Shown: one piece after another, positions 1 to 17,103 of the stretch
Layout: each line of letters starts with the position of its first letter
Numbering within the stretch: the stretch's first letter is position 1
Origin: Escherichia coli
GTDB taxonomy: Bacteria; Pseudomonadota; Gammaproteobacteria; Enterobacterales; Enterobacteriaceae
Assembly: GCF_024223415.1 (NCBI RefSeq)
Contig: NZ_CP100500.1
Strand: one strand, 5' to 3'
DNA length: 64,000 bases
Position numbers and translations under genes: made by a program
Notes under the pieces: model-generated
Told to the model about the DNA's origin: nothing
The model's database searches: none
What the model saw: the letters and a program-made list of their open reading frames with translations, nothing else

Positions 1-1062
1 CCCAGCCAGTCTTGCCATATACTCTGCATTTTTAGCAGCATATTCTCTGAAGTCTCTTAAAGGCCCCAGAACCGCCATCTTCGATTCCACATCGTTGTAA
101 TAGTCCGTCCAGATTCTGGCTGCCTGAGGAGAAAAGTGAAGGCAACGTCGCTCTCCCCTCATAGCCAGGCTTTCATCAATAAGTTCATTGATCCTCTTGT
201 CAAATAACTCCTGATACTGTGATGAATAATTATCTCCGGTTATTATCCTTGTCCCCTGCGTTGATGTTGGTTGACACATCAAAAACCGTGCATGATGTCC
301 TGATGTCTTCACCAGTTCTTTTTTTCGTGTACAAAAACCTTTGTGGTAAACATCAGGCTGAATCATCACCGATATCGTCAGTCTTGGGTCCTTCAAAAAA
401 ATCCCGGGAGATGATTTCCTGTCGATGAAAAGGGAACTACCATCCCATAAAGAGTTAAGTATTCCCAGTTTGCTCATTGCCCGGCTGTCAAAAATCACCC
501 CGCCCTCACTGGATACAAGAGCAAAAGAGCGATTGCTGTCGGAATAATATTTAAACATTCCCTCTGTCGTCGTATCATTAAAAATTGTCCGATTTATCTG
601 CGGTGGAACAGGACAACTATTCAGATGCATTCTGAGCTCTGATTCTGTTGCTTCATACTCTTTACCGGCACGAATCTCTTTATGAAGTTTTGACTCCAGT
701 GCCTTTTGTTTTTGCTCCCATATTTCCTTTTCTGCACTGTAATTCTCAACCAGTTTCGCATATTCTTCCGCAAGAGTTTCATCCCTGAGATAAAATGCTT
801 TCATAAAAACTTTATCCACGGTCGTTTTCCTTTCGCCGGAATCAGCCAGAATCATAGCGTAAAGATTAGAGGGGCCACGTAAATTACCAGGTCTGCACAC
901 ATCAATCTGATTCTGACAGGCAACTGACACCGCTGTTAATGCTGCTGTTGCAACCAGAGCCCCGGGCGCCTGTGTATTTTGCTGAGTTTCAATTATTGCA
1001 TTTCTCACCAGAGATGTTAATGCATTTATCGGAAAAGGGGCTTCCTGTTCAAGTAAGGACAT
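1..1062 (-). CDS. DUF3987/YfjI-like protein of a P4/CP4-57-type integrative element; 3' end lies beyond the window start
   Basis: Manual reverse translation from ATG (rc of 1060-1062, GAGGT Shine-Dalgarno upstream) is stop-free to position 1; N-terminus MSLLEQEAPFPINALTSLVRNAII. Absent from the ORF track because it has no in-window stop. Family assignment from memory of CP4-57 yfjI. Confidence 0.5.
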   Translation of the reverse strand, partial: MSLLEQEAPFPINALTSLVRNAIIETQQNTQAPGALVATAALTAVSVACQNQIDVCRPGNLRGPSNLYAMILADSGERKTTVDKVFMKAFYLRDETLAEEYAKLVENYSAEKEIWEQKQKALESKLHKEIRAGKEYEATESELRMHLNSCPVPPQINRTIFNDTTTEGMFKYYSDSNRSFALVSSEGGVIFDSRAMSKLGILNSLWDGSSLFIDRKSSPGIFLKDPRLTISVMIQPDVYHKGFCTRKKELVKTSGHHARFLMCQPTSTQGTRIITGDNYSSQYQELFDKRINELIDESLAMRGERRCLHFSPQAARIWTDYYNDVESKMAVLGPLRDFREYAAKNAEYMARLAG

Positions 1063-1321
1063 AAATACCTCAATTTTAGTTAATAAATCAGTAAAGTAGC
1101 AGATATTCCCGCTATAATAGCCAAAATAGCTGCTATGCATAGCCGATATGTTCTGAAAAATACAGTAATCGGGCATACCTGATGTTGAACAAAACGATAA
1201 GGTTGATTCAATTCAGCCTGTATTATTAGCTACGTAACATCATTCACATTGCTCACTCCTGACATCTTCTGATGATTATTTCAACGACGCCTTATTCATG
1301 GTCGTTTTCCTTTTTCATGAA

Positions 1322-1543
1322 TCAAAAAACAACCATAGTGTAAATATTCATGGGTTCACGAAAATTATCTAATCTGCACACATTAGTCAGATCCTGACGG
1401 GAAATTGACATATCTGTTAATACTGGCATTGCCATCAGAGTCAGAGGTACTTGTTTATTATATTGAGCTTTAATCATTGCCTTTCCCATCATTAATGATC
1501 GCGCATATACTGAATACGGCGTATCCGGTTTTATGTAAGACAT
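1322..1543 (-). pseudogene. Truncated degenerate duplicate of the 5' end of the DUF3987-like gene
   Basis: 73-aa ORF; protein and DNA at about 1290-1620 parallel 810-1140 (QVPLTLMAMPVLTDMSISRQDLTNVCRLDNFREP versus QAPGALVATAALTAVSVACQNQIDVCRPGNLRGP). Confidence 0.4.
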
Positions 1544-1718
1544 AAATGCTTCCTTTGTCGTAATGCGTGTCGGTTATAGCAGCAATTACCGCTACAATAG
1601 CGACAATAGCTGCTCTTTCAACAATGAATGCTGGAAATTCTGTTTATCAATTAAACTTCTGGCTAAATTATTCTTATGCTTCTTTTTCCTCCTGAGGTGA
1701 TCACGTGATGACAAAAAC

Positions 1719-2015
1719 TTATCTGCTCATGGTCATATCTGAAGAAAGCGTATGTCGCACTTCGTCATTAACACCTTTTACTGCTGATCTGGCTGGTACA
1801 GTATGTAAAGTAAGCCATTCGTCAATAGCTGATGAACGCCAGCCCACAGAACCACTACCAAGACGTACCGGCCTTGGGAAGGTTGCATCGTAATATTTCG
1901 ATAACGGATTCATTTTTTCGTAAATTGTCGAACGAGATATACCTAACAATTGGCTCAGTTCAGGCATCCGTAAGATGCGTGAAGGAGTCCAGCAGTGTCC
2001 GGATTGATCTGGCAT
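1719..2015 (-). CDS. AlpA-family (prophage CP4-57 type) transcriptional regulator
   Basis: Motif ILRMPELSQLLGISRSTIYEKMNP...YDATFPRPVRLGSGSVGWRSSAIDEWL matches the AlpA helix-turn-helix pattern; start trimmed to the internal Met (MPDQ) of track ORF 1719..2114. Confidence 0.6.
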   Translation of the reverse strand: MPDQSGHCWTPSRILRMPELSQLLGISRSTIYEKMNPLSKYYDATFPRPVRLGSGSVGWRSSAIDEWLTLHTVPARSAVKGVNDEVRHTLSSDMTMSR

Positions 2016-2237
2016 TTTATCCCCCTTAGTGTGGTGAACTGTCGTTACAGTTTGTATTCCTCGGGTAAATTTTTCTGCGTAAAAAAATGGGTTGAGCAAA
2101 AAGACAATAAACAACTAAAAATCAATATGATAGGAAACAACAGCATTATTGTTATTTTACTTTTCCCTTATCGCTGTCGATTCTCATTATCATTCATGGC
2201 AAAAAAACAGTAAAAGAGGCCCTAGTAATGACTCCGG

Positions 2238-2630
2238 TCAGTAGTACATGTGCTTCGATAAATGAACCAATGGCTTTTCGTTAATTTCCACGGAGCGTGA
2301 AAAGCAAATCGTTTTCAGGGATGGGAGTTTGATGTGAGTACGAAGTATCAGATTGTTGCGCTCAATGCGCCGGGTAAATATCCTGCCGACAGGATGCTTA
2401 TCCTGTGGTACTTCTCTGGTATAACTGCACCAGTTTTCACTGGTTATCATGCCTGAGGAGAATGGCTTCAGAAGTTCCGGCAACTCACTACATGTTTCAT
2501 CAGTACGAGGACCAAAAGTGTAAGCCCGCACACCGCCAGATTTGGTGTTATACGCATACCAGAGCCAGTGCTGACGAGCTTTGTTTCCGACAAAGCTCCA
2601 TTGTTCATCAAGTTCGCATATAAGCGCCAC
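2238..2630 (-). CDS. insB: IS1-family InsB-like transposase ORF
   Basis: MALICELDEQWSFVGNKARQHWLWYAYNTK...TRRIERNNLILRTH aligns with IS1 InsB ([23 protein letters not shown]...TQRIERHNLNLRQH); the frame continues upstream of the first Met. Confidence 0.6.
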   Translation of the reverse strand: MALICELDEQWSFVGNKARQHWLWYAYNTKSGGVRAYTFGPRTDETCSELPELLKPFSSGMITSENWCSYTREVPQDKHPVGRIFTRRIERNNLILRTHIKLPSLKTICFSRSVEINEKPLVHLSKHMYY

Positions 2631-2659
2631 ATCGGCACTGGCGACTGGAGATGTGGTTA

Positions 2660-2916
2660 CTTTGCATGGTGAGCGTTTTTTAAAGTGCGAATGACTGTGT
2701 TGATACCCACCTTCAGTGTTCTGGAGGTATCGCGAACCCCGGTTCCGTTATGAGCCATTTCAACGATTTGCTCTTTAACACTTGGTTTTCGGGCTTCGCA
2801 GGTGTAATTCAGTTGAAATACACGTTTGCAGGAGCGGCACTGGAAACAGTGCTGTGACCGTGACGGTACACTTTATCGGAATTACAGCGGGGACAATGTA
2901 CGGTAACTGTTGCCAT
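2660..2916 (-). pseudogene. insA: IS1-family InsA-like ORF with an apparent frameshift in the N-terminal zinc-finger region
   Basis: Reverse translation gives MATVTVHCPRCNSDKVYRHGHSTV then a stop; another frame continues QHCFQCRSCKRVFQLNYT...VEMAHNGTGVRDTSRTLKVGINTVIRTLKN, which is InsA-like. Confidence 0.45.
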
Positions 2917-3111
2917 ATGGACTCCGGATACCAACAGAATACCCCATTAATCTGCCCCCGGAAGTCATCCCGGTGCCTTCTGACATAATCTGTTAATACA
3001 TGAATTATTGCCCTGTTCAGAAAATATTAATTAAAAAATGAAAACCAGTTAACAGAAAAGCCACATGACATAATGTTAAAATTTTATATCGTGCAATAAA
3101 AGGAGAATGTT

Positions 3112-4938
3112 ATGTACAATTTTATCACTATAATGTATGATGTCTTTTCATGTTTTGGTGTTCTGGCTAAAAACCAGAATATCCGTGACATCCGAAATAT
3201 TAAAAACTTTTCCTCACATCAACATTCACTGGCCGACATGTTTGATGAATTAACATACATTATTGACAAAGAACAGGTACTGAGCACAGAACAACGAAAA
3301 GTTATATTCAGGAGATATGAAGATCTGTATGTTAAACTCATGCACTATTCTGTTTTTACAGACAAAACACATCAAATAATAAAACAAAAATATTTTAATG
3401 ATGTTGTTCCAATGATTCTCGCGCTCGACATCAGGAACACATATCGCCCGGATAATGAGATGGCATTTTACTATCATATCCATTCTTTTCTCACTCAGAT
3501 ACCGGATAATGAGGATGATATATATCATGCTGTAAGGACATATATGAGAAATTATGTTAAGTTATGTTTATCCGGATACACACCAACGAATGCGCATTTC
3601 AAAAATATCTTTGATGGAGTATATGAATTCATTCGTAATATTCGCAAAAACAGTACACCCGGAAAAACAAAACTTATTGCAGCTATCAACATATGCAAAG
3701 AAGCCTGTAAATATCTGCTTTGTTTAAGTGATAAAGACAAGGAAATAATATTTTCCGACTTAGATAAAATTCAGGTTGCATGTTATTCTCTCACTATATT
3801 ACTGGCTTTCGAAAGACGAACATCATTAACAAGTAACCTGGCAACTTTATATAAAATGCTGATAAACGAAAGAGAAGTTTCAGAATATGAATGTCAGCAA
3901 TTATATTTAATCAACCCAATAGATGTAATGAATATACTGAACAAATACATATATTACTTCCCTGGTGAGAATTCACCTCTTTATACACTGAAAATTGACA
4001 GTGCATTATCGTGGGATGCCATTGATGCAATACGAGACTATAGTATTTCTGATATTTATCTTTATCCTGAACAAAAAACAATAAATTGTATCGTTGAGAT
4101 TGAAAACATTGTCTTTGGCGGTTACATTTATACATTGAGCGACGGCGTCACATTACAAAATATGGAAAACACTTTAAAAGATTCCTCATGTCATTATGTA
4201 TTAAATGGCTATACAGAATTTGTTAACTGTTTAAGACAACTTACTTCAGGAAAGACTGAAAGTGTTCAGCGTACCATTAATAAACTGGAGTACGAAAAAT
4301 TACCTTTTGGATTTATCATTGCCGCGTTTGCTATATTAAAAATAGCATTTAAGATAAAGTTCAGTAAAAATCATGTAAATACCAGGGCATTATTAAATGA
4401 CATCAGTTATTTTATGACTTATCAGGGCGAGTCCATTAATCTTATTTCACTGGATCATGAATATCCAGAGTTCCGTCTTCAAAATGACACAAATACATAT
4501 TTATTGGGAAGGATGATATTTCTATATAACTCAATGATCTATAAATTCAGAAACTGCCAGGAACATGAAACCAATAACATTAACTCAGTTATGATAAATA
4601 ACCTATTACAGGAAGTTGATATAGCCCTTGGTAAAATAAATGACATTATAGACAGCAGAAACATATCAGTCCCCCATGAACTGGCAAATATTCTTATCCA
4701 CGAAAAAATACTTACAACACGTGAAAAAAAAGGAAACCTGATAAGCCTGTTTGATGGATTCACTTTATTCCATTGTGTTGGAATGATAACCTTTCTTATC
4801 CATTACCTCAGAACTCCTGAAGAAAAAGTAGAAAATGTATTTATGTTATATGGTGCAGATAAAAACAATAAACTACGCAGAAGACTGATTTATGATGCAC
4901 TAGAAATAATTCAGTCTCAGCAGGAGATGAAACCTTAA
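3112..4938 (+). CDS. Hypothetical 608-aa protein; AT-rich orphan cargo gene with no recognisable motif
   Basis: Long ORF with canonical AAGGAG Shine-Dalgarno 8 nt upstream of the ATG; AT-rich composition; no P-loop, HEPN, nuclease or transmembrane signature seen by eye. Confidence 0.8.
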   Translation: MYNFITIMYDVFSCFGVLAKNQNIRDIRNIKNFSSHQHSLADMFDELTYIIDKEQVLSTEQRKVIFRRYEDLYVKLMHYSVFTDKTHQIIKQKYFNDVVPMILALDIRNTYRPDNEMAFYYHIHSFLTQIPDNEDDIYHAVRTYMRNYVKLCLSGYTPTNAHFKNIFDGVYEFIRNIRKNSTPGKTKLIAAINICKEACKYLLCLSDKDKEIIFSDLDKIQVACYSLTILLAFERRTSLTSNLATLYKMLINEREVSEYECQQLYLINPIDVMNILNKYIYYFPGENSPLYTLKIDSALSWDAIDAIRDYSISDIYLYPEQKTINCIVEIENIVFGGYIYTLSDGVTLQNMENTLKDSSCHYVLNGYTEFVNCLRQLTSGKTESVQRTINKLEYEKLPFGFIIAAFAILKIAFKIKFSKNHVNTRALLNDISYFMTYQGESINLISLDHEYPEFRLQNDTNTYLLGRMIFLYNSMIYKFRNCQEHETNNINSVMINNLLQEVDIALGKINDIIDSRNISVPHELANILIHEKILTTREKKGNLISLFDGFTLFHCVGMITFLIHYLRTPEEKVENVFMLYGADKNNKLRRRLIYDALEIIQSQQEMKP

Positions 4939-4961
4939 ACAGGAAAATTATTTTTTATAAA

Positions 4962-4986
4962 CAGGGGATTATTGAGTAATCCCCTG
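4962..4986. terminator. Hairpin between the convergent 608-aa gene and int
   Basis: Inverted repeat CAGGGGA...TCCCCTG flanked by A/T runs. Confidence 0.35.
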
Positions 4987-5122
4987 CTCATCAAAACCCA
5001 CTTTCCTGACAATCTGATAACTATCAGCTCAATACATTTGACATAAAAGAGATCCCTTAATTATTACCGTTACGGTCACAATCACATATCAAATCATGAT
5101 TGTACAATATACATTTTCACTA

Positions 5123-6325
5123 TTATTTATTCATAATCTGAGACATCACATAATCCGCCCATGCCTGCATCATCGGTACACGCTGCTCCAGTAGATCAGT
5201 ACGATGATATGCCGCCTCAACCTTATTTTTCAGCGTATGAGCGAGCGCCCTTTCAGCCAGATCCCGCGAATACCCCTGCTCACTACACCAGTCCCTGAAT
5301 GTTGAACGAAAACCATGTGCCGTGGCGACTCGCCCCGGAATATCACTGACGGCTTTCTTTTTACGCAGAAAACTGGTCAACACCATATCTGAAAGGATCT
5401 GCTGCTTTCTGGGTGAAGGAAACACCAGTTCATCATGCAGACCACGTATATTTTCCAGAATGTAAATAGCCTGTCGGGATAAAGGAACACGATGCTGTAC
5501 CCTGGCTTTCATTCTTTCTGCTGGTATCGTCCATATCTGCTTATGAAAATCAATTTCAGTCCAGCGCATTCCCCTGGCTTCACCCGAGCGGGTTGCTGTA
5601 AGTATCACCATTAATAACAATGCGCGGGTAACATTATAGGGTTCATCGGTATACACACTGGTCGCCACAAAAAGCGGTAACTGCCTCCATGGCATTGCGG
5701 GTTGGTGTTCATCACGTCCTCTTGTCTGCTGGGGAAGCAAATGATCAACCACATCCACAGGATTTGCCACACAAAAACCATGTGCCCATCCCCACTGCAT
5801 AACAACATGAATGCGCTGTTTAACCCGGCTTGCCGTTTCTGACAAAGTTAACCAGACTGGCCGCAGTGTTTCTGCCACGTCCGCAGCCGTAATCGAATCC
5901 AGCGTTTTCGCTCCCAGTTGAGGAAAGGCGTAATTCTCAAGCGTCGATAACCACTGCCGGACATGCTTTGGATTTTCCCATCCAGGAGACAGTTCTGCAT
6001 GTACACGTCTGGCTGCATCGGCAAATGTTGGGATAACAACTTTTTCAGCCTCAGCCTTTTTAATCTCCAGAGGATCATCACCAGCAGCAAGTTGCTCTCG
6101 CATTATCCGGGCAGTACGTGCAGCTTCAGCAATGCTGATCTCAGGGTAAGTTCCCAATCCAGCATTACGCCTTTTTTGTGTCACCGGACTTACATAACGA
6201 AAAACCCATTTACCCCGACCCTTTACTGAAGAAGGATGAAGGGTCAGTCCTGTAATTCCCCCATGGGGCAATGGTTTGTCATCAGGTTTGATATGCCTTG
6301 CTTTCGTATCCGTCAATACTGCCAT
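5123..6325 (-). CDS. int: Tyrosine integrase, P4/CP4-57 family
   Basis: 400 aa; C-terminal catalytic region HGFRSTFRDWCSEQGYSRDLAERALAHTLKNKVEAAYHRTDLLEQR is typical of P4-like integrases. Confidence 0.9.
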   Translation of the reverse strand: MAVLTDTKARHIKPDDKPLPHGGITGLTLHPSSVKGRGKWVFRYVSPVTQKRRNAGLGTYPEISIAEAARTARIMREQLAAGDDPLEIKKAEAEKVVIPTFADAARRVHAELSPGWENPKHVRQWLSTLENYAFPQLGAKTLDSITAADVAETLRPVWLTLSETASRVKQRIHVVMQWGWAHGFCVANPVDVVDHLLPQQTRGRDEHQPAMPWRQLPLFVATSVYTDEPYNVTRALLLMVILTATRSGEARGMRWTEIDFHKQIWTIPAERMKARVQHRVPLSRQAIYILENIRGLHDELVFPSPRKQQILSDMVLTSFLRKKKAVSDIPGRVATAHGFRSTFRDWCSEQGYSRDLAERALAHTLKNKVEAAYHRTDLLEQRVPMMQAWADYVMSQIMNK

Positions 6326-6343
6326 ACGCTAATTCCTGTTACT

Positions 6344-6367
6344 CTGGTATGCCATCTGGTATGCCAT
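6344..6367. repeat. Tandem direct repeat CTGGTATGCCAT x2 just upstream of the int start; candidate arm-type integrase site
   Basis: Two perfect adjacent 12-bp copies 19-44 bp upstream of the int ATG. Confidence 0.4.
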
Positions 6368-6482
6368 TATCTTCACGCTTCAGTCAGAATACAGTAGATG
6401 ACATCAGACAGTAAAATATGCAATATACTGTTTATAATCAAATTTTATGACACAACAGGACTCATTCAGATTCATTTCAGGC

Positions 6483-6499
6483 GGTCCCCCTCACCGCCA
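6483..6499 (+). other. tRNA 3'-end-like sequence (CCCCTCACCGCCA); candidate att core or host serW 3' remnant at the island boundary
   Basis: Resembles a tRNA-Ser acceptor/CCA end but no complete tRNA (no T-arm) precedes it; followed by an intrinsic terminator. Confidence 0.35.
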
Positions 6500-6510: not shown

Positions 6511-6541
6511 GAGCTCGTACGAAAGTGCGAGCTTTTTTTTT
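6511..6541 (+). terminator. Rho-independent terminator
   Basis: AGCTCG-loop-CGAGCT stem followed by a T9 run. Confidence 0.6.
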
Positions 6542-6543: not shown

Positions 6544-6692
6544 CATTTTATCTGCCTGTACGGCAGTGAACATGGTGGGCGGGTGGAGTATGTTACCAGT
6601 GAATTTCTAAGCTGCCTGTACGGCAGTGAACGTTTGCTGCAACCGCTAGCCAAGACGGTAGGTTTTTCTAAGCTGCCTGTACGGCAGTGAAC
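6544..6692 (-). CRISPR. Orphan type I-F CRISPR mini-array: 3 repeats, 2 spacers, no cas genes in the window
   Basis: Minus-strand repeat GTTCACTGCCGTACAGGCAGCTTAGAAA (the E. coli I-F repeat) at 6604-6631 and 6665-6692 plus a degenerate terminal copy at 6544-6571; spacers of 32-33 nt. Confidence 0.85.
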
Positions 6693-6842
6693 TCAAATAC
6701 TACACGTTTAGCCCGTTGTTAATAAAGCAAAACCATCCCATTCTCCTGCAGCACCCTTTTTTATCCTTACCTTCCAGCAGCACTAATTATCAACAACTTA
6801 CCTTCACCTCCAAAAATAGGGTTTTCACCGTTCCACCCCATA

Positions 6843-6879
6843 AATAAAAAGTCCGTAACCTCTTTCGAGATTACGGACT
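6843..6879 (-). terminator. clpA transcription terminator
   Basis: Stem AGTCCGTAA / TTACGGACT followed on the minus strand by a T-run, about 25 bp past the clpA stop. Confidence 0.6.
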
Positions 6880-6903
6880 TCACCAACCTACCTGACAATC
6901 AGA

Positions 6904-9180
6904 TTAATGCGCTGCTTCCGCCTTGTGCTTTTGTGCACTCTGAAATCCGTAAGTCAGCTCATTTTTCTCTTTATCCAGCGCGACGGTGACCTGACCGCCG
7001 TCCACCAGCGAACCAAACAGCAGTTCGTTGGCAAGCGGTTTTTTCAGGTTGTCCTGGATGACACGCGCCATCGGACGAGCGCCCATTGCCCGGTCGTAAC
7101 CTTTCTCGGCCAGCCAGTTACGCGCTTCCTGGCTCACTTCCAGAGAAACACCTTTCTGATCCAGCTGAACCTGCAACTCGACGATGAATTTATCCACCAC
7201 CTGATGGATCACGTCAGTTGACAGATGATCGAACCAGATAATGTTGTCGAGACGGTTACGGAATTCCGGTGTAAAGATCTTCTTGATCTCTTCCATCGCA
7301 TCGGTGCTGTTATCCTGGTGGATAAGACCAATGGATTTGCGCTCAGTTTCCCGTACCCCGGCGTTAGTGGTCATCACCAGTACCACGTTACGGAAGTCCG
7401 CTTTGCGTCCGTTGTTATCGGTCAGCGTACCGTTGTCCATCACCTGCAACAGAATATTGAACACGTCCGGATGCGCTTTCTCGATTTCGTCCAGCAGCAG
7501 CACCGCATGTGGATGCTTGATGACCGCATCAGTCAGCAAACCGCCCTGATCAAAACCAACGTATCCCGGAGGCGCACCAATCAGACGGCTGACGGTATGG
7601 CGTTCCATATACTCGGACATATCAAAGCGCAGAAGCTCAATGCCCAAAGCTTTCGAAAGCTGTACCGTCACCTCTGTTTTCCCGACCCCGGTAGGACCGG
7701 CAAACAGGAACGAACCGACCGGTTTATGTTCGTGACCTAAACCTGCACGCGCCATCTTAATGGCTTCAGTCAGCGCCTCAATGGCTTTATCCTGACCGAA
7801 GACCAGCATTTTCAGGCGATCGCCGAGGTTTTTCAGGGTATCGCGGTCACTCTGAGAAACACTCTTCTCTGGAATGCGTGCAATACGGGCCACCACGGAC
7901 TCAATATCCGCCACATTAACGGTTTTCTTGCGTTTGCTTACCGGCATCAGGCGTGCGCGAGCGCCCGCTTCGTCGATAACATCAATCGCTTTATCCGGCA
8001 GATGACGATCGTTAATGTATTTCACCGCCAGCTCTACCGCCGCACGCACCGCTTTTGCGGTATAACGCACGTCGTGGTGCGCTTCATACTTCGGTTTCAG
8101 GCCATTGATGATTTGAACAGTTTCTTCGATCGACGGTTCAGTAATATCAATTTTCTGGAAGCGACGCGCCAGAGCACGGTCTTTCTCGAAAATGTTGCTG
8201 AACTCCTGATAGGTTGTCGAACCAATTACGCGAATTTTACCGCTGGAGAGCAACGGTTTGATTAGGTTAGCCGCATCGACCTGACCACCAGACGCTGCAC
8301 CCGCACCGATAATGGTGTGGATCTCATCAATAAACAGGATGCTGTTAGTGTCCTGCTCCAGCTGCTTGAGCAACGCTTTAAAACGTTTTTCAAAGTCGCC
8401 GCGATATTTTGTGCCCGCTAACAGAGAACCGATATCGAGAGAGTAAATCGTACAGTCAGCCATCACTTCCGGCACATCGCCCTGAACAATTCGCCAGGCA
8501 AGACCTTCTGCAATCGCGGTTTTACCGACACCAGATTCCCCCACTAGCAGCGGGTTGTTTTTACGGCGACGGCAGAGAACCTGAATAGCACGCTCCAGCT
8601 CCTTCTCACGACCAATCAGTGGGTCGATTCCGCCCACGCGCGCAAGCTGATTCAGGTTCGTCGTGAAATTCTCCATACGTTCCTCCCCACCAGCTTGTTC
8701 TTCGCTGTTTGGCTGGCTGCCAGGATCAGAAGACTGTGTCGGCTCGTCTTTACGCGTGCCATGAGAGATAAAGTTCACCACATCGAGACGGCTGACTTCA
8801 TGTTTACGCAACAGATATGCCGCCTGCGACTCCTGTTCGCTAAAGATAGCGACCAGAACGTTTGCACCGGTAACCTCATTGCGACCGGAGGACTGGACAT
8901 GGAAGACCGCACGTTGCAGTACACGCTGAAAACTCAGCGTCGGCTGTGTGTCGCGCTCCTCTTCACTGGCAGGCAGAACGGGTGTGGTTTGTTCAATAAA
9001 GGCTTCCAGTTCCTGACGGAGCGCAACCAAATCCACAGAACACGCTTCCAGCGCCTCCCGGGCAGATGGGTTACTGAGCAGCGCCAGTAACAAGTGCTCG
9101 ACGGTCATAAACTCATGACGGTGCTCGCGCGCTCTGGCGAAAGCCATATTTAAACTGAGTTCCAGTTCTTGATTGAGCAT
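6904..9180 (-). CDS. clpA: ATP-dependent Clp protease ATP-binding subunit ClpA
   Basis: Product begins [35 protein letters not shown] and carries two AAA+ Walker A motifs ([16 protein letters not shown]); start trimmed from the track ORF. Confidence 0.95.
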
Positions 9181-9210
9181 AGGCACCTCCCCCAATTTTT
9201 ATGCCTGCAT

Positions 9211-9531: not shown

Positions 9532-9616
9532 TGTCAGTTATCATCTTCGGTTACGGTTATCGGCAGAACGCCCTGCCGCTGACAAGAGCTTATTTGCCTG
9601 ACCAATCTACTCCACA

Positions 9617-9633
9617 TGATAGATAACTATCAT
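9617..9633. other. Left att core candidate TGATAGATAACTATCAT
   Basis: Near-identical copy TGATAAATAACTATCAT at 20087-20103. Confidence 0.4.
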
Positions 9634-9705
9634 TTATATCATTTAGTTAATTAGTCTTTATTTTTCATTATGTTGCAAATAACAAGCCCGTCAAAAACAG
9701 TGATA

Positions 9706-9760
9706 TTAACTACACCATTAACTACACCGCTTCACGAACAATATCGAACAACCGCGAACA
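9706..9760. repeat. Left-arm repeats: AACTACACC x2 followed by CGAACA x3 (candidate integrase or accessory-factor sites)
   Basis: The same motifs recur in the same orientation at 19946-20078. Confidence 0.4.
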
Positions 9761-9880
9761 AAGATCAACACGCTTTAATCATTATCATTTTCCGGCTATC
9801 CGTCATGAAGCTGGTGGATGATCTGCGTGGTGATTTCCACCATTCAGAGCAGGTGCGGTCATCATGACCATGCCATAACA

Positions 9881-9905
9881 AAAACCCCATATTCGTGGTT
9901 TTTCT
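9881..9905 (+). repeat. 25-bp direct repeat copy 1 (AAAACCCCATATTCGTGGTTTTTCT)
   Basis: Second copy AAACCCCCGGATTCGTGGTTTTCCT at 10518-10542; the pair flanks a hairpin-rich non-coding segment. Confidence 0.5.
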
Positions 9906-10517
9906 GTGTCGGGGCTATTCTGCTGTTGCCGTGCTGGTGGATATTCTCCGGTATGCGGCTCCCCATATCGGCATCAGGCCCACCAGCGTGAAGCGTTTTT
10001 CATTTTTCGCGGGTATAAAAAATCGATGGGGCGGGCAGTCCTGAAGACGTCAGGGTACAGAGATTTGACCCGCCCCTCCCTGTGCATGAGCACAATAAGT
10101 AACCGAAGGCGGAATTCCGCCCTCGGTACTTACATATGAGAAACGATATTTCTTCCACCGATACCCTTTATTTGGGTATCGCGAGTAAGCCCCAAAATCT
10201 GGGTGTTACTCTTACTACCCAAACTACGGGTAGTTTCCGTAGTTTCATGGTCGAGTTGCAAATCTGCAACTCACCCACCAGCCAGCGCAATGTCGCATTA
10301 TCAGTCCTCAGATGTGAGGGATGTAGCCAGCTTTTCCCCCAGTGGGGATTATCCAGTTACCGACGGTTTAACCGCCTGTACCAGCACAACGAAAGAATTT
10401 GCGGGTAGCTTTAAACTACTCACAACATCCCATCTTACAGGCCGTGCCTTTCTAACTTTTTACAATGCAATAAGTCAGGTAACGCTATGCGTTCCACCGT
10501 GTACACCGCGCCAGTAA

Positions 10518-10542
10518 AACCCCCGGATTCGTGGTTTTCCTG
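10518..10542 (+). repeat. 25-bp direct repeat copy 2
   Basis: See copy 1 at 9881-9905. Confidence 0.5.
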
Positions 10543-10554
10543 AATATCAGGAAT

Positions 10555-10929
10555 CTACCGCCGCAACCGTTCCGGCTTCTTCCACTGATAAGTGTTTTTC
10601 GCGCTCTCCCTCCGTTGTTGAGAACGGCGACGGTATGCCAGCAACTCAAGGACTCTGGTTCGTATGTTGCGCATATCCACGCCGTTAAGCTCAATACCAT
10701 CACGGCGCATCACCTCAGCAACAACACACGCGTAATTTTCGGCTATCACGCTGTCCGGCTGCGTGGCCTCCTGTTCGCCAGCCTGCTGGCTGATTCCGGT
10801 AATACTGCGGATTATCCCGAGCGCTTCGGTCTCGGTCATGGTCATGGCCTCCATAGTGATGGCGGGTCCTCCTTGTGGGGTGCCCTGCCACGGGGCGGGA
10901 GCATCGCGGAAAAAGGCTAGTTTTTGCAT
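10555..10929 (-). CDS. Hypothetical protein of the satellite packaging module
   Basis: 124-aa ORF downstream of the Nu1-like gene; no recognisable domain; start uncertain. Confidence 0.45.
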   Translation of the reverse strand: MQKLAFFRDAPAPWQGTPQGGPAITMEAMTMTETEALGIIRSITGISQQAGEQEATQPDSVIAENYACVVAEVMRRDGIELNGVDMRNIRTRVLELLAYRRRSQQRRESAKNTYQWKKPERLRR

Positions 10930-11090
10930 TTTTATTCGTTATCACCACCAATGCAATATATTGATATGACTTGATGTTTTATTTTTCGGTGTCGATTTCG
11001 ATTGTTTTTTGTTCATCACTGACGCATAACGCCCACCAGCGCAACGCTGAAAGCCAGTCAGTAAACTGGCTTCGGTCATTGTGCACTACG

Positions 11091-11645
11091 TTACTTGTCT
11101 TTATCCGGCTGAAACTTATCAGGCACATTTCCGGTAGTTTCCATCAGATAATCGGACAGCATTCGCGGGATGTTTTCATCAAGTTTTGTGCATGCGTTAC
11201 AGGCTCTGACAACTTCTTTTTTCAGGCCATCCAGCATGGCGGGGGTCATCTGTGGGAAGCTCCTTTGCATAGTAAGCGGGAGGCTGTCCATGATTGATGA
11301 AATCTGACTCGCCAGTTTTGAAAGCGCGTACATGCAAAACTCTGTATCAATCACGTCACCGCGATCGCGCTCGTTTTTAAGTTCCTGCGCCTCCGCCTGT
11401 GCTGTCAGTAATCTGATCCTGACTCGTAAAAGTTCATCATCGTCAATCTCGCCTTTGTCGTTTGTAATCTGGCTGATTGCATTGTTAACCCGATTATCTA
11501 TTACACTGGCGACATCATAAAACGTCTCACGGCCCTTACGCTCGACGGGAATCACTCCCCACTTATCGAACGCAGTGGCGCTTACTCGGCAGCTTTTCGC
11601 CATGTTTTTTTTATTCATCAGGTGCGATTTCATCAATACCCCCAC
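11091..11645 (-). CDS. Terminase small subunit, lambda Nu1-like
   Basis: LLRVRIRLLTAQAEAQELKNERDRGDVIDTEFCMYALSKLASQISSIMDSLPLTMQRSFPQM...LDENIPRMLSDYL aligns with lambda Nu1; probable true start at the MNKKNMAK Met near 11618. Confidence 0.8.
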   Translation of the reverse strand: MGVLMKSHLMNKKNMAKSCRVSATAFDKWGVIPVERKGRETFYDVASVIDNRVNNAISQITNDKGEIDDDELLRVRIRLLTAQAEAQELKNERDRGDVIDTEFCMYALSKLASQISSIMDSLPLTMQRSFPQMTPAMLDGLKKEVVRACNACTKLDENIPRMLSDYLMETTGNVPDKFQPDKDK

Positions 11646-11727
11646 TTAATTAATGCTTCAGGTTGGTGTGTTGGTGTTATCTTTCCATTTTTATTCATAG
11701 AGATAGAGCGAACAACAAAACCACCAC

Positions 11728-11790
11728 CAACCCGAAAAGGCTCATAAATAGCGAAAATCCGCAAGGTCGACGCCCCGTAACGGGTCCACA
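11728..11790 (-). other. Lambda-type cos site (cosN/cosB)
   Basis: Minus strand reads ACGGGGCGTCGACCTTGCGGATTTTCGCTATTTATGAGCCTTTTCGGG, matching the lambda cos sequence as I recall it (ACGGGGCGGCGACCTCGCGGGTTTTCGCTATTTATGAAAATTTTCCGG); about 120 bp upstream of the Nu1-like gene. Confidence 0.8.
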
Positions 11791-11805
11791 TGCCGGAAAG
11801 GACCC

Positions 11806-11835
11806 ATAAAAAATAAAGCCGGACTACTCCGGCTT
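11806..11835 (-). terminator. Rho-independent terminator after the FinO/ProQ-like gene
   Basis: Stem AGCCGGA / TCCGGCT followed on the minus strand by a T-rich run. Confidence 0.5.
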
Positions 11836-11858
11836 CGTCTCTTCATGTGGTCAGGGTT

Positions 11859-12539
11859 TTATGCTTTCCGTACGCCCGAGGAACTGGCATTTTTCAGAAT
11901 AATATTATGCCCTGCTGGTGGCTTACCGTTATGCTTATTTTCTGCCTTCATGTTTCTGCGCTCCTGCTGTTTTTTCTTCATCTCATCCAGTCGCTTCCCC
12001 GCGTTCAACTGGTGCTCCTGTGTCACCTCCCCGCACGGATGGCCTTTCAGGTCGTAACGCACGCCACCAGCCATCAGGGAACGGTAATATCGCACTGAAC
12101 TGACATAATACGCCAGCGTTGCGCGAAGCGCTCCCTGACCTAATGAAATACCTCTCGCAGTAATATCCTCCATCAGGTCATCAAATATGCCAACCTTAAG
12201 CGGTCTGGGCGATTCCTGGCTGAAAAGTTCAGGCCAGAGCGCGGCAAGGCGTTCAACGCGTCTGATATTTTTTTTCCGGCTCTTTTCTGATTTGCGTTTT
12301 GCTGCCGTCTTCTGTTGTGTTTTCTGCTCGCGGCTCTGCTTTTGCGCTGGTGTGGTTTTATCCGGCTGTTCAGCCTCCTGCGTCTTTTTCTGCGGTGTGC
12401 CGTATATGCCTTTTGGTTTTCGGTTAATGGTCAGCTTTGTCATGTTCTCCCCCTTTGTGCTGTTCCACCAGCGGCATCTGCTACCCCGTGTCGCTCCCGC
12501 TGGTGTCGTGTTTCCCCGCCTGTTAATAACCGTCATCAT
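11859..12539 (-). CDS. FinO/ProQ-domain RNA-binding protein with a Lys/Gln-rich N-terminal region
   Basis: RPLKVGIFDDLMEDITARGISLGQGALRATLAYYVSSVRYYRSLMAGGVRYDLKGHPCGEVTQEHQ aligns with the E. coli ProQ N-terminal domain (RPLKIGIFQDL...RLYTSSWRYL...RVDLDGNPCGEL); start uncertain. Confidence 0.75.
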   Translation of the reverse strand: MMTVINRRGNTTPAGATRGSRCRWWNSTKGENMTKLTINRKPKGIYGTPQKKTQEAEQPDKTTPAQKQSREQKTQQKTAAKRKSEKSRKKNIRRVERLAALWPELFSQESPRPLKVGIFDDLMEDITARGISLGQGALRATLAYYVSSVRYYRSLMAGGVRYDLKGHPCGEVTQEHQLNAGKRLDEMKKKQQERRNMKAENKHNGKPPAGHNIILKNASSSGVRKA

Positions 12540-12843
12540 TTACGTTATCAGGGTAATCACGCCATATTTCATCAGTAAGCGACGGTAGCCCCATCTGTTG
12601 TATTGTCCTGTCTGCGGCCCTTCTGACTGCGTGAACATCATAACGGTTTTCAGGTATCGGGCGCTTTGCCTTCCTGATACATTCCCTTGCTCTCATTGCC
12701 GCAAGTTCTCTGTGCCTGTCTTCCTGAAGAGTAATCATCACATCCTGCCACCTTCTGGCAGCCCGTCGCCACAGTCCCCTGCTCTCGAGTTCTTCTGCTG
12801 TCGCGTCGCTTATTGTCCGGTTCTTCGGTGTGCTGTTGTTCAT
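12523..12843 (-). CDS. PerC-family transcriptional activator-like protein
   Basis: N-terminal EELESRGLWRRAARRWQDVM resembles the PerC/Pch signature (recalled, not searched). Confidence 0.55.
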   Translation of the reverse strand: MNNSTPKNRTISDATAEELESRGLWRRAARRWQDVMITLQEDRHRELAAMRARECIRKAKRPIPENRYDVHAVRRAADRTIQQMGLPSLTDEIWRDYPDNVNDDGY

Positions 12844-12860
12844 GTTGCTCCCCGCCTGAT

Positions 12861-13271
12861 TCAGAAGGGTATATCATCTCCGTAGGGGTCATCGCCTCCC
12901 GCTGGTGGCTTATTCCCCTGTGCGCCTGTGGTTTTGCGTGTTTTTCCGCCCGGTCGCACTGTCCGCGCACTGATTACGCTGTCTGCGATAACCTGCCAGC
13001 CCTGCCGCGTTTCCCCGTTCTGTCCGGTCCACTGGCTCACCTGCATGTTACCCGCCACGCTCAGGAGTTCACCCTTGCGGTGCTTTGCCAGTGCTTCGGC
13101 CTGTCTGCCAAACGCCAGCACAGATAACCACATCGTCGCCGTTCCGTCATCTGCCTGGCTGCACGGAAGGGGGACCGCCATACTCGCCATCGCCATTTGT
13201 GTCCCCTTGCTGGTGGTCTTTAACTGCGGGTCAGCCACCAGCCGCCCGTAAGCCGCTATCTGTGCTGTCAT
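12861..13271 (-). CDS. ssb: Single-stranded DNA-binding protein (SSB)
   Basis: OB-fold-like N-terminus (IAAYGRLVADPQLKTTSKGTQMAMASMAV), Gly-rich linker and the acidic C-terminal tail DDIPF. Confidence 0.8.
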   Translation of the reverse strand: MTAQIAAYGRLVADPQLKTTSKGTQMAMASMAVPLPCSQADDGTATMWLSVLAFGRQAEALAKHRKGELLSVAGNMQVSQWTGQNGETRQGWQVIADSVISARTVRPGGKTRKTTGAQGNKPPAGGDDPYGDDIPF

Positions 13272-13525
13272 GCTGTATGCTCTCCGGTTTTAACGTTGAT
13301 GGTTGTCACCTGTTCCGCTCCGGCAATCTCCCGTTCTGTCAGCGTGGCAAAATTTGCCGCTACCGTTGTCATGAATGCGCTTATCAGTGCGGGATGTGCT
13401 TTCGCGTATCCTTCTCCCGCGCTGCGGTCGATAATTTTTATCGCCACCCTCAGCCAGTGCTCTGTAAGGTCAATGGCGCGGTTATGTGGTTTCTTCTGAT
13501 TATTAAGTTTTCCTGATGTGTGCAT
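13268..13525 (-). CDS. Hypothetical protein
   Basis: 85-aa ORF overlapping the ssb start by 4 nt (translational coupling). Confidence 0.5.
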   Translation of the reverse strand: MHTSGKLNNQKKPHNRAIDLTEHWLRVAIKIIDRSAGEGYAKAHPALISAFMTTVAANFATLTEREIAGAEQVTTINVKTGEHTA

Positions 13526-13570
13526 TTTTATTTTTACCCCCTCGTTTAAAAAGTTTTGTGTTGTGGTGCA

Positions 13571-13806
13571 CCTCCTCTACCTCTCTACACAATCATCTTT
13601 CAGGTCAGTAATGGCGCGGCTTTCAGCGGGGTAGAGGGCTTTTTTGGCCCTCTACCTGCCATCTACCACCCCCTCACAAATGCCCTGAATTATGGTAGAG
13701 GGTGTAGAGGGCTTTTAAGTACCTTCTACCTGCCATCTACCCAATCTATCAACATGAAATATATGTAATTATTTTCTTAAGGTAGAAGGGGTAGAGGGCT
13801 TTTGTC
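13571..13806. repeat. Iteron cluster; candidate satellite replication origin
   Basis: At least three copies of GGTAGAGGGCTTTT and repeated CTACCTGCCATCTACC, including the palindrome GGTAGAGGGC-TTTTTTG-GCCCTCTACC, immediately 3' of the primase gene. Confidence 0.55.
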
Positions 13807-13811
13807 TAAAA

Positions 13812-15560
13812 CTATAAAAACGCGTCGCAGTCGTCTGTTGTTGTCACGTTGGTTTGCGTAACCCCTTTAATCCTGCGCGTTATATATTCATGTCCGTAAA
13901 CTTTCGCCGCTGGCTTCATGGCCTTGCTGAACTCAGCCACGTTCAGCGGTTTGCTCCTGCCTGCATACGCCATAAACGCCAGATAGACGCGGTAAAGGCT
14001 GTTTCTGGTCGTGTACTTCACGGAATCGCCACCGCCCCCCATCATCAGGCCACGTGCTTCCTCCAGAAAATTCAGGAACTGGCAAAACTCAATAACCGGA
14101 TCCGTTTGCTGCTTTATCGCCAGTGCTTCATCACCGTCACGCTGTTCCAGTAGTAAAGCCCGCGCCTTTTCAGGGTCTGCAAAGTTCGCCAGTAATCGGC
14201 GGATAATGACGGGGATTTCAGCCGCAATCCTTTCCGGTAGCTCCCTGTCTTTTTCAGCCTCACTGACGATATTGTCGAAACGAAAAATCACGCGACGACG
14301 TGCCACACCTCCGGCCCGTTCGGTGAATATCATCGGGTTATTGTTGGTCGCCAGCACCACCGCCCTGATTACAGCCGTGAAACGCTTTTCGTATTTCGGG
14401 TTAATTTCCACGGGGTCACCGCCCGTGATTTTCTTGATGCCCGTTCCTTCGCCTGTATATTTCGGCTGGTCTGCCAGGACGATAAGACGACTCCCGACAA
14501 CCTGCGCACGCCCACCAGCATCATCAAGCGATGTCATCTCAGCGCTTACCGTGTTCTGTTTCCCTGCCAGAAGGCTGGCTATGTGCGTGAATGTACTTTT
14601 ACCGCTCCCGCCGTCTCCGGTGGCCTCAATAAACATCTGCCAGTCGTACCGGTTCGCCATAATCATGTACAGCGCGGCACATATACGCATCATCTTGCGC
14701 GGGTCTTTTCCGGCTGCGTGCTCAAGCCATTTATGAAAGTTTGGCGCGTTATCGCGGATGTTCTCCCCAGGTGCTGGTGGCGTGTACTCAATGCCATTGT
14801 GCGTGGTGATCCAGTTCTCCGGCGTGTGCGGGGAAAATTCCCCCGTTTTCAGGTCAAGCGCACCATTGGCGAACGGCAGCAAATCGCCGGACGGCTCGCC
14901 CATTGGTTCGGCAATAACTTTTAACGCTTCCACGGCGTTATTGATTACGCGCTTGCTGAAAGTGGCCCTGTGCTCTGAATAGATCGCCACCATTTCGCGG
15001 CTCAGTTCCATTGTGCTGACCGGACACCATACCCCGCCGCGCCATACGTGAACGATTTCACTTTCCGGATGCACACAAACGCCATCAAATCGACCAGCAA
15101 GCATCTGTGCGCGCTCACTGTCTGCCATTTGTGCCAGTTGCGTATTTTTCTGCTCCGGCATGGTAAGCCCTGCAGCAATATTTTCACGCTCAGCATTCAG
15201 ATAACGCCGCCAGTTTTCACACTTCTGACCGTGCATTCCTTCGGGGTAAAAATTTGCGTCCTGTACGCCAGCCGCCGCCAGCTTCTGACCAATCGCCTTT
15301 ATCATTACTGGCGCAAGATATCCGGCCCTGAATATACGCACGGATTTTCTGCCTTCCGGCACAATTTGCAGCTTATCCAGTTCGGATAACTGCTGCTCCC
15401 CAAGCCACACAGGAGGCTCATTATCTCCGGCCATACGCGCGTCATGTTCCTGCCATTGTTTCGCGTGTGCCCAGGCATCACTACCCGCAAAAATAATGAC
15501 TTCAGTTCCTTTGTGTTTTATGCCGCGTGACTGCAGTTTTACGTTCGGTGCCAGTTTCAT
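13812..15560 (-). CDS. Replication protein: primase/helicase (P4 alpha-like, P-loop NTPase)
   Basis: 582 aa; Walker A GDGGSGKSTFT; size and position match satellite pri-rep genes. Confidence 0.8.
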   Translation of the reverse strand: MKLAPNVKLQSRGIKHKGTEVIIFAGSDAWAHAKQWQEHDARMAGDNEPPVWLGEQQLSELDKLQIVPEGRKSVRIFRAGYLAPVMIKAIGQKLAAAGVQDANFYPEGMHGQKCENWRRYLNAERENIAAGLTMPEQKNTQLAQMADSERAQMLAGRFDGVCVHPESEIVHVWRGGVWCPVSTMELSREMVAIYSEHRATFSKRVINNAVEALKVIAEPMGEPSGDLLPFANGALDLKTGEFSPHTPENWITTHNGIEYTPPAPGENIRDNAPNFHKWLEHAAGKDPRKMMRICAALYMIMANRYDWQMFIEATGDGGSGKSTFTHIASLLAGKQNTVSAEMTSLDDAGGRAQVVGSRLIVLADQPKYTGEGTGIKKITGGDPVEINPKYEKRFTAVIRAVVLATNNNPMIFTERAGGVARRRVIFRFDNIVSEAEKDRELPERIAAEIPVIIRRLLANFADPEKARALLLEQRDGDEALAIKQQTDPVIEFCQFLNFLEEARGLMMGGGGDSVKYTTRNSLYRVYLAFMAYAGRSKPLNVAEFSKAMKPAAKVYGHEYITRRIKGVTQTNVTTTDDCDAFL

Positions 15561-15856
15561 TTTTTACCCCTGAATCCGTTAATCATGGTTTTCATCTTCT
15601 GAATATTGGCGCGTGCTTTCTCCCTGCTGGTGGGCACGTTACGCGGTACGGCCTGCACAAGAGAAAAATCACGCACAAACTGATAAACAGGCATCACGCA
15701 ATCATATTCGTAACCTTCATGGCGGTAGGTGATGCGCCGTTCTGCCACGCCTTTAATCGTTACCGTACCGCCGTAGTTATCACGGAAAATATCGCCGGGA
15801 CGGATTTCAGGCCGAGTGAGGCCGCTGGCAGTAAAGCCAGAATTTTTCTTTTTCAT
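15557..15856 (-). CDS. Hypothetical protein (99 aa), coupled to the primase gene
   Basis: Stop overlaps the primase start (ATGA). Confidence 0.6.
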   Translation of the reverse strand: MKKKNSGFTASGLTRPEIRPGDIFRDNYGGTVTIKGVAERRITYRHEGYEYDCVMPVYQFVRDFSLVQAVPRNVPTSREKARANIQKMKTMINGFRGKK

Positions 15857-15886
15857 GGTTTTATTTTCCTGTCAGTGATTCCGGCT

Positions 15887-16060
15887 TTATTCCGGCGCGA
15901 ATACAGGCTTCAGAAAAAAAGCCAGAGAACCAATAACCTCATTATTTCTAAGGCGGCATTGCGATTTCACTTTCCCTTTATCCAGGAATATCAAAACGCG
16001 CCCCGTATAATCAGATGGCACATTAAGCACTACAGGTAAGTGCGCTTCATGATTATTCAT
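15887..16060 (-). CDS. Hypothetical small protein (57 aa)
   Basis: Start trimmed to the ATG preceded by AGGAGGTGG; N-terminus MNNHEAHLPVVLNV; start overlaps the stop of the upstream gene. Confidence 0.5.
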   Translation of the reverse strand: MNNHEAHLPVVLNVPSDYTGRVLIFLDKGKVKSQCRLRNNEVIGSLAFFLKPVFAPE

Positions 16061-16340
16061 GGCTAACCACCTCCTGGAATTTTCTTCTGTAACGCGCCTC
16101 TGCCACATATTCAGCATAGTCCGACGCAATATTGAGAATATCGCTACCCGTTCCTGAATGTTCGGCGGTTTCCAGTAAAAAACATGCAGCTTTTACCATG
16201 TCAGCAACACATAACAGCGCAATATCTGTATCTTCCGGTGTGCCATCAAATTCCTGTTTCAGGGCATTAAAACGATCATCACGCATAACCCCATATTCAC
16301 AATCAGCAATCAGGATGGCTTTGGCCTCATTCAGTGCCAT
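16053..16340 (-). CDS. Hypothetical protein; N-terminal extent uncertain (may start at 16496)
   Basis: Only the C-terminal 95-147 codons of the 662-aa track ORF look protein-like (MALNEAKAILIADCEYGVMRDDRFNALKQEFDGTPEDTDIALLCVADMVKAACFLLETAEHS). Confidence 0.4.
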   Translation of the reverse strand: MALNEAKAILIADCEYGVMRDDRFNALKQEFDGTPEDTDIALLCVADMVKAACFLLETAEHSGTGSDILNIASDYAEYVAEARYRRKFQEVVSHE

Positions 16341-16494
16341 ATCAGCGGTAAGCTGTGCGTAGGCCAGCAAATGCGGGATTATTGCCCCTGTATATTCCGG
16401 CTCTCTGATAATGTGGTCGGATGTGTTGATTAAATAGTTTGTGCGAAAAATGCACCTGTAACCATCAGTTAACAACGGATATACAGGGGGGACC

Positions 16495-16665
16495 ATGAAT
16501 GATAAGGGGGTGCCGTTTGATGTGCTCCTGCAAAAGCTGAATGCTGCACGCGCCGCAAGGGAACGTGAGCGCATGAGTAATAACCCTGTCCCTCCTGAAT
16601 TACCTCGCCCTGAACATTTTCCGCTTGAGGATTTCATCAGGGGACGAATCCGAACAAAACGATAA
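16495..16665 (+). CDS. Small protein (56 aa), paralog of the 16909 ORF
   Basis: ATG preceded by a G-rich Shine-Dalgarno; shares the PxxFPLE(D/R)FI motif with ORF 16909..17103; below the track length cutoff. Confidence 0.35.
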   Translation: MNDKGVPFDVLLQKLNAARAARERERMSNNPVPPELPRPEHFPLEDFIRGRIRTKR

Positions 16666-16908
16666 CCGCCGCCGTGATATGAGGCATCACGACGCAATGC
16701 ATTACAGGTGAGCACCATGAACAAATCCATATTATCCCCCACAGTTCTGGACGTAAACACAAAGCAGCGACAGATATTATTACGCGCCGTCATTAAAGCC
16801 AGACACGAGAAATTAAACCAAATCTTAAAATAAGATACGCCGCTACCGCTGTAAGTCTTCATCAGAAACAGAAAACGCCAGAGCAGATGAGCACGGAGGT
16901 AACTCTTT

Positions 16909-17103
16909 ATGAAAATAAACGAATCAGGGGAAATTACCGAAGCCAGCGTGGTACGCCAGCGGAGGCGGGAACGACGGGTACGGCCCCCCGCGCCATCCGA
17001 TAATTTCCCGCTTGAGCGCTTCATCAGTGAACGGCCCCGCATACGCTGGAACGGCACAACCCCATACCCCGAGGAGAGACAGACAAAAAACAAACAGCGA
17101 TGA
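16909..17103 (+). CDS. Small protein (64 aa), paralog of the 16495 ORF
   Basis: GGAGGT Shine-Dalgarno 9 nt upstream; C-terminal FPLERFISERPRIR. Confidence 0.4.
   Translation: MKINESGEITEASVVRQRRRERRVRPPAPSDNFPLERFISERPRIRWNGTTPYPEERQTKNKQR

Follow-up and report, generated by a model that had tools for sequence, protein, structure and literature searches.

Orphan type I-F CRISPR array beside clpA in Escherichia coli, with spacers that match I-F cas1 and cas3 genes

The 64-kb stretch of Escherichia coli DNA analysed here (contig NZ_CP100500.1; called the window below, with positions counted from its first letter) contains a short type I-F array at 6544-6692, in which three 28-nt repeats surround two spacers, one matching cas1f and the other matching cas3f. 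This array is the orphan CRISPR4.1-2 of E. coli, or 'CRISPR3 anti-CRISPR', and is already known. Touchon & Rocha (2010) described a remnant I-F array, located between clpS and aat, in all E. coli without the "Ypest" cas genes, reported that its spacers 1 and 2 match Ypest Cas1 and Cas3, noted a terminal repeat specific to cas-less strains, and proposed the array as an "anti-CRISPR" (PMC2886076); the name CRISPR4.1-2, in the CRISPR-III locus, comes from the Mojica group (PMC3903273; PMC4489801). We consider it very probable that this cas-less array of the clpA-serW-infA locus blocks the establishment of an active I-F system by means of its anti-cas3 and anti-cas1 spacers.

A chromosomal array that has no cas genes and appears to immunise its host against the matching CRISPR-Cas system is a textbook-level curiosity. 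What is mildly new in the present analysis is an exact anti-cas1 protospacer from a divergent lineage of Escherichia, the synonymous seed mismatches of the compared E. coli cas-F alleles, and a SNP in the anti-cas3 spacer of this strain that is absent from the other arrays compared. For annotation, the locus can be labelled as an orphan CRISPR4.1-2 array (type I-F) transcribed on the minus strand, with one spacer against cas1 and one against cas3.

Anatomy and flanks of the array

The array and its flanking features are listed below in minus-strand order (evidence in brackets).

6904-9195, minus strand: clpA, the core gene on this flank, by which the CRISPR-III locus is defined
6848-6881, minus strand: intrinsic terminator hairpin of clpA, located just before the leader and oriented like the array
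6693-6847, minus strand: A/T-rich CRISPR leader of about 155 nt, between the clpA terminator and repeat 1
6665-6692, minus strand: repeat 1, leader-proximal, exact type I-F (CRISPR4) repeat GTTCACTGCCGTACAGGCAGCTTAGAAA (repeat search, Rfam, fold)
6632-6664, minus strand: spacer 1, 33 nt, anti-cas3f, crRNA sense AACCTACCGTCTTGGCTAGCGGTTGCAGCAAAC (cas3f match and GG PAM)
6604-6631, minus strand: repeat 2, exact I-F repeat (repeat search, Rfam)
6572-6603, minus strand: spacer 2, 32 nt, anti-cas1f, crRNA sense TTCACTGGTAACATACTCCACCCGCCCACCAT (cas1f match and GG PAM)
6544-6571, minus strand: degenerate terminal repeat GTTCACTGCCGTACAGGCAG-ATAAAATG, last 8 nt diverged (alignment, fold)
6511-6541, plus strand: serW terminator hairpin and T-run, forming the array trailer (read from the sequence)
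6486-6499, plus strand: 3' end of serW (tRNA-Ser), 14 nt CCCCCTCACCGCCA, att core and right junction of the island
5123-6325, minus strand: tyrosine integrase of the serW island (Pfam Phage_integrase, Phage_int_M and Arm-DNA-bind_3)

Read on the minus strand, the repeats at 6604-6631 and 6665-6692 are both exactly GTTCACTGCCGTACAGGCAGCTTAGAAA, the type I-F repeat of E. coli and Yersinia, and the start-to-start distances of the three repeats (60 and 61 nt) give spacers of 32 and 33 nt. When up to three mismatches were allowed, GTTCACTGCCGTACAGGCAGCTTAGAAA was found at two sites only in the 64 kb, against 0 expected from 100 shuffles. Both exact repeats were also found on the minus strand with the Rfam model RF01317 (CRISPR-DR4), at 50.1 bits compared to a gathering score of 35. 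The third repeat (6544-6571) is identical to the consensus at 23 of 28 positions; all five changes lie within the 8 nt of the would-be 5' handle for the next crRNA, and the 20-nt hairpin part is unaltered. The predicted hairpin (5-bp stem, 5-nt loop, -8.6 kcal/mol) is the same for the consensus and for the terminal repeat of the window, so that a predicted Cas6f stem-loop is kept by all three repeats. The array contains two intact crRNA units, in each of which a CUUAGAAA handle precedes the spacer and a Cas6f hairpin follows it, and both crRNAs could be matured, all three predicted Cas6f hairpins being retained.

The canonical orientation of the array is the minus strand, which is also the strand of clpA. 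In this orientation, the clpA stop codon is followed by the terminator, the leader, repeat 1, spacer 1, repeat 2, spacer 2 and the terminal repeat, so that 6665-6692 is the repeat next to the leader and 6544-6571 the degenerate one at the far end. CRISPR arrays usually carry a degenerate repeat at the leader-distal end. The window therefore shows each element by which a type I-F array is recognised (repeat, spacing, stem-loop, and a leader with a degenerate repeat at the far end). The first-pass annotation had reported two canonical copies and one degenerate copy of the I-F repeat, with spacers at 6572-6603 and 6632-6664 on the plus strand; the alignment and the Rfam search bear out the repeats, and the spacer coordinates are correct as given, but the canonical, transcribed strand is the minus strand.

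On the clpA side, the 211-nt interval between clpA and the array (terminator included) shares 87-92% identity with the CRISPR4.1 leader of two I-F-positive loci (L004 and L009), and is near-invariant across cas-less strains. The clpS-clpA segment of the window is 99.9% identical to that of E. coli DSM 103246. A strict scan of the leader for sigma-70 promoters returned no site. A relaxed scan returned two weak candidates, TTGGAG-16-GATAAT (-10 at 6791-6786) and TTTATT-18-TAGTAT (-10 at 6702-6697).

On the other side, homology to K-12 and EC974 begins exactly at the serW fragment (6486-6499), and the DNA to the left of this fragment belongs to the island. The serW terminator is near-identical to that of K-12 and EC974, the sole difference being one T in the T-run of K-12. 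The array therefore lies, as originally described, between clpA and the end of an integrative element, flanked by clpA and the integrase and right beside the island junction at the serW att core. This adjacency is incidental, since the island-free strains K-12 and EC974 hold the array at the same position relative to serW; the two are close because the array is ancestrally located next to serW, a tRNA gene that is used as an att site. The spacers are accordingly uninformative on the history of the neighbouring island, and also on that of the satellite-like element described below.

We note several features of the island and of the rest of the window. Positions 1-6485 are the right end of the low-GC (38-41%) serW island, whose integrase is 95.7% identical to the same-site integrase in EDL933 and DSM 103246; in O157:H7 EDL933, a serW-island integrase occupies the same position as that at 5123-6325 here. 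ARAGORN found no intact tRNA in the 64 kb, so the intact serW lies beyond the window, at the opposite end of the island. A 608-aa ORF of the island (3112-4938) has no Pfam match. A perfect tandem copy of the 12-mer TCTGGTATGCCA is found at 6343-6366, directly upstream of the integrase start (6325, minus strand), and could be an integrase/excisionase binding site or a promoter element. A second mobile element was observed on the other side of clpA: compared to DSM 103246 and EDL933, the window contains about 10.5 kb of extra DNA between clpS and macB (about 9600-20600), which includes the following genes.

11091-11645: Nu1-like small-terminase protein
11859-12539: ProQ/FinO-domain protein
13812-15560: D5_N/DUF5906 primase-helicase-like protein
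18681-19919, minus strand: tyrosine integrase

This gene set looks like that of a phage satellite (PICI/P4-like), and the insert matches neither of the two CRISPR spacers. Further along, a segment of sharply low GC content (36%) at 38000-40300 stands amid core-like DNA of 52-55% GC and contains a 599-aa ORF with pentapeptide repeats (38495-40294, minus strand). Rfam also identified the sRNA RybB (60633-60711, plus strand, 104 bits) and naRNA4/CssrE (44544-44624, minus strand, 78.5 bits), both ordinary core features of E. coli.

Spacer targets and absence of cas genes

We searched both spacers sensitively against 5,426 complete E. coli genomes, and compared them base by base with I-F-positive loci of one cas type (L003 and L004, with B2-type cas1f) and of another (L009, strain 503829). 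Most of the genome matches fall at the same unannotated clpA-proximal position, and some fall inside annotated cas1f. The alignments with cas genes are as follows.

Spacer 2 (6572-6603) with cas1f of L003/L004 (E. coli B2-type): 31/32 identical, mismatch at crRNA position 4
Spacer 2 with cas1f of strain 503829 (L009): 30/32 identical
Spacer 2 with cas1f of 'E. coli' E69 (L010): 32/32 identical, with GG PAM
Spacer 1 (6632-6664) with cas3f (cas2-3) of strain 503829 (L009): 30/33 identical, mismatches at crRNA positions 11, 30 and 33
Spacer 1 with cas3f of L003/L004: 28/33 identical, mismatches at crRNA positions 2, 11, 19, 20 and 30

All of these cas1f and cas3f protospacers have a GG after them, at the end that corresponds to the leader side of the array, in agreement with the PAM rule reported for I-F systems of E. 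coli (PMC3506596). The next-best matches of the spacers in the I-F-positive loci (19-24 kb each) have 13-14 mismatches.

Neither spacer is perfect against any of the three E. coli cas-F loci compared (L003, L004 and L009), and the seed is affected in part. Spacer 2 has its seed mismatch (position 4) to both E. coli cas types, and in both sampled allele types this is a synonymous change in cas1f at protospacer seed position 4. The seed of spacer 1 is intact against the L009 type and mismatched at position 2 to the L003/L004 type. The cas1f gene of E69 (CP089930.1) contains the sole perfect anti-cas1 protospacer found. It was detected in a scan with the anti-cas1 pattern over one genome per species, which also returned a K-12-like MAG. 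In the GTDB-based collection used, E69 represents a species of its own. The 3' end of its clpA is 94% identical to that of the window, and its cas1f, which adjoins a 37-repeat I-F array, is about 92% identical to the E. coli alleles; from these two identities we assign E69 to a divergent lineage of Escherichia. Over one genome per species, 0 matches were obtained with a degenerate pattern that covered the anti-cas3 spacer and protospacer, so no better source allele was found for spacer 1.

The anti-cas3 spacer of this strain carries a SNP (GTTTGC instead of GTTCGC, that is T for C at plus-strand position 4, or crRNA position 30) that is absent from the other five compared arrays with this spacer. 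Among the genome matches listed, no genome matched both spacers of the window exactly.

We also considered spacer 2 as an in-situ remnant of a deleted cas1. This was rejected, as the match is exactly 32 nt long and bounded by repeats; it is also inverted relative to the orientation of cas1f with respect to clpA.

The window contains no I-F cas genes according to tblastn with six I-F Cas proteins, in agreement with the first-pass annotation. Apart from the two spacers, the search gave only three short matches without significance (E of 0.2 or more), and no adjacent cas1f, cas2-3f, csy1-3 or cas6f was found. The terminal repeat is separated from the 3' fragment of serW by 44 bp, exactly as in the cas-less K-12 and EC974, whereas in I-F-positive strains the cas genes, about 8.5 kb in all, occupy the space from the array near clpA to the serW 3' end. 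The cas genes are thus absent from the only place known to hold them in E. coli, and the 44-bp interval makes the array an orphan at the I-F cas locus of the species.

In the population, 2,711 of the 5,426 complete E. coli genomes match either spacer, a count that includes about 240 genomes that may be matched solely at the protospacer of their own cas operon. Full-length cas1f is found in 238 of the 5,426. The places-per-record counts for cas1f and for the anti-cas1 spacer hold three extra places each, at least one of them due to a split cas1f, and these counts leave no room among the 5,426 genomes for one with both cas1f and an anti-cas1 spacer of the window type. Of the 789 places matched with the cas1f query, one belongs to a plasmid record, and the chromosome of that genome has no match.

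Proposed mechanism and alternative explanations

In the mechanism that we favour, the array would be transcribed on the minus strand from its leader, and possibly also by read-through from clpA, and it would be inert in the resident cell, which would lack Cas6f and Csy proteins. Should an I-F cas operon arrive on a mobile element or with recombinant DNA, the incoming Cas6f would cut the transcript into two crRNAs, the incoming Csy complex would load these resident crRNAs and be directed to the protospacers, flanked by GG/CC, within cas1 and cas2-3 of its own operon, and Cas2-3 would then degrade the carrier DNA. Where mismatches weaken interference, the outcome would instead be primed spacer acquisition against the carrier. 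The net effect would be that an active I-F system is kept from establishing, and the strain is predicted to resist uptake of an I-F system. This reading builds on the anatomy and orientation of the array, on its targets and their PAMs and on the lack of cas genes, all of which are observed here, and on expression, interference and priming, which are taken from the literature. In its passages on Almendros et al. (2016), a review (PMC8616872) states that native orphan arrays are constitutively expressed, that they interfere with I-F cas plasmids and prime spacer acquisition, and that interference and priming together prevent the cognate system from establishing. The allele in the window is probably competent for the same defence, and we expect that the Cas6f, Csy and Cas2-3 proteins of an incoming I-F operon would use the resident crRNAs in this strain.

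The evidence against an anti-cas role includes the lack of a strong consensus promoter in the leader and the decay of the K-12 and Ecol_AZ147 alleles. As the leader contains only weak promoter candidates, expression of the array rests on the literature. Direct interference by the window allele may also be weak and dependent on priming, given its seed mismatches to E. coli cas alleles; against B2-type cas genes in particular, these mismatches suggest that priming rather than direct cleavage may dominate.

The E. coli cas-F alleles now in circulation might even be escape variants, whose spread would be due to a silent seed mutation that weakens the effect of the common anti-cas 'vaccine'. This idea comes from the exact protospacer in E69 and the synonymous seed mismatches in the E. 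coli alleles, and we hold it to be rather doubtful. If true, such variants would amount to a measurable arms race between the orphan arrays and the CRISPR-Cas systems that they exclude.

The main rival to anti-cas defence is a neutral relic, i.e., the spacers were ancestral self-targeting ones, the cas genes were later lost, and the array has no present function; Diez-Villasenor et al. (2010) read it in this way, as quoted in PMC2886076. The mismatches of the window spacers to extant E. coli cas alleles, seed included, would fit a relic, and so would the absence of a detectable strong promoter in the leader and the decay seen in sister arrays (the broken hairpin and mutated spacer of K-12, the 28-nt spacer of Ecol_AZ147, and the strains with a single spacer). 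A relic does not readily explain why anti-cas spacers are kept in about half of the 5,426 genomes, why the leader and terminal repeat are near-invariant, or why every spacer seen in cas-less arrays targets I-F cas genes. The terminal repeat is also unlike those of extant cas-linked arrays, a difference from which Touchon & Rocha argued that the array pre-dates the extant cas genes (PMC2886076), and interference and priming are reported for native orphan arrays in the passages of the review cited above (PMC8616872). We therefore judge a neutral relic to be unlikely, if the best of the alternatives.

The first-pass annotation had instead proposed that the spacers record past encounters with mobile elements. 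As an immune memory of phages, plasmids, satellites or integrative elements at this hotspot, the spacers would obey the general rule that spacers derive from mobile DNA, and the array does lie close to the serW att site. We searched the two spacers (joined by Ns, sensitive settings) against 50,697 phage and 72,556 plasmid records and found no match at E<=10. Within the rest of the window, on both strands and including both mobile elements, the best matches have 12-13 mismatches, which is chance level, and neither element is matched better than with 12 mismatches. Both spacers have instead specific, PAM-flanked matches in cas1f and cas3f, and the same spacers are found in island-free strains. 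The proposal thus did not hold up, and we regard it as highly improbable.

Equally hard to credit is use of the array in trans by other I-F-like machinery (a plasmid-borne or transposon-borne variant) for a purpose other than anti-cas defence: the repeats are intact predicted Cas6f substrates and elements can co-opt host arrays, as a passage of PMC11300857 describes, but both spacers target cas1 and cas3 only, the window contains no I-F-like machinery, and no data indicate another target.

Comparison with known arrays

Sister alleles of the array are found in other cas-less strains, with the following contents.

EC974 and DSM 103246: both spacers, with one base different in the anti-cas3 spacer
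EDL933: anti-cas1 spacer only
K-12: mutated anti-cas1 spacer and disrupted terminal hairpin
O6:H16 strain (L007): anti-cas3 spacer only
Ecol_AZ147 (L006, NZ_CP018995.1): extra cas3f-matching spacer and truncated anti-cas1 spacer

The terminal repeat of the window (CATTTTAT...) is identical in four of the six other cas-less arrays compared (L001, L002, L007 and L008), and the K-12-type arrays L005 and L006 have a terminal repeat with one extra substitution. K-12 MG1655 and EDL933 share with the window the leader, the terminal repeat and the anti-cas1 spacer, but these two strains carry the anti-cas1 spacer only, whereas the window retains both spacers and all hairpins; the predicted terminal hairpin of K-12 has only -1.4 kcal/mol compared to -8.6 kcal/mol in the window. 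In Ecol_AZ147, the anti-cas1 spacer is cut to 28 nt, and the extra spacer GCCAACTTTCACAGCCTTTGCAAGATTGTTCC (1555-1586 of that locus) matches cas3f with three mismatches on the opposite strand, where the match is followed by GA and not GG. The same orphan array as in K-12, mutated spacer and broken hairpin included, was also observed in a contig of a MAG labelled 'Proteobacteria bacterium' (L011, JADFJT010000085.1), which suggests that this contig is E. coli K-12-like, possibly a contamination of the metagenome bin.

The CRISPR4.1 arrays of I-F-positive strains (LF82, UTI89, ATCC 11775, B7A and others) have an identical repeat, the same clpA-adjoining position and orientation, and a homologous leader (87-92%). 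Unlike the window, they are followed by cas1f-cas3f-csy1-3-cas6f and have different terminal repeats (TGTGAATA/TTTGAAGA/TTGTGAAA). The I-F-positive arrays compared (L003, L004, L009 and L010) contain 3-36 unrelated spacers and no anti-cas spacers. An origin of the orphan array by recombination between CRISPR4.1 and CRISPR4.2 is unlikely, since its terminal repeat differs from both terminal repeats of I-F-positive strains and since serW, which lies between cas6f and CRISPR4.2, is retained.

The mini-CRISPR arrays and solitary repeat units of viruses and other mobile elements are also very short, depend on Cas proteins supplied in trans and take part in conflicts between elements; unlike the array described here, they are carried by the elements and aimed at rivals or at the host (PMC8616872).

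The closest known system is CRISPR4.1-2 itself (Almendros et al. 2016, Nat Microbiol 1:16081). The window has the same clpA-serW/infA locus without cas genes, the same repeat, leader and cas-less-specific terminal repeat, and the same two spacers against the I-F/Ypest Cas1 and Cas3 with a GG PAM. It differs at the allele level only, by the SNP in the anti-cas3 spacer and by the island that is integrated at serW, 44 bp further on.
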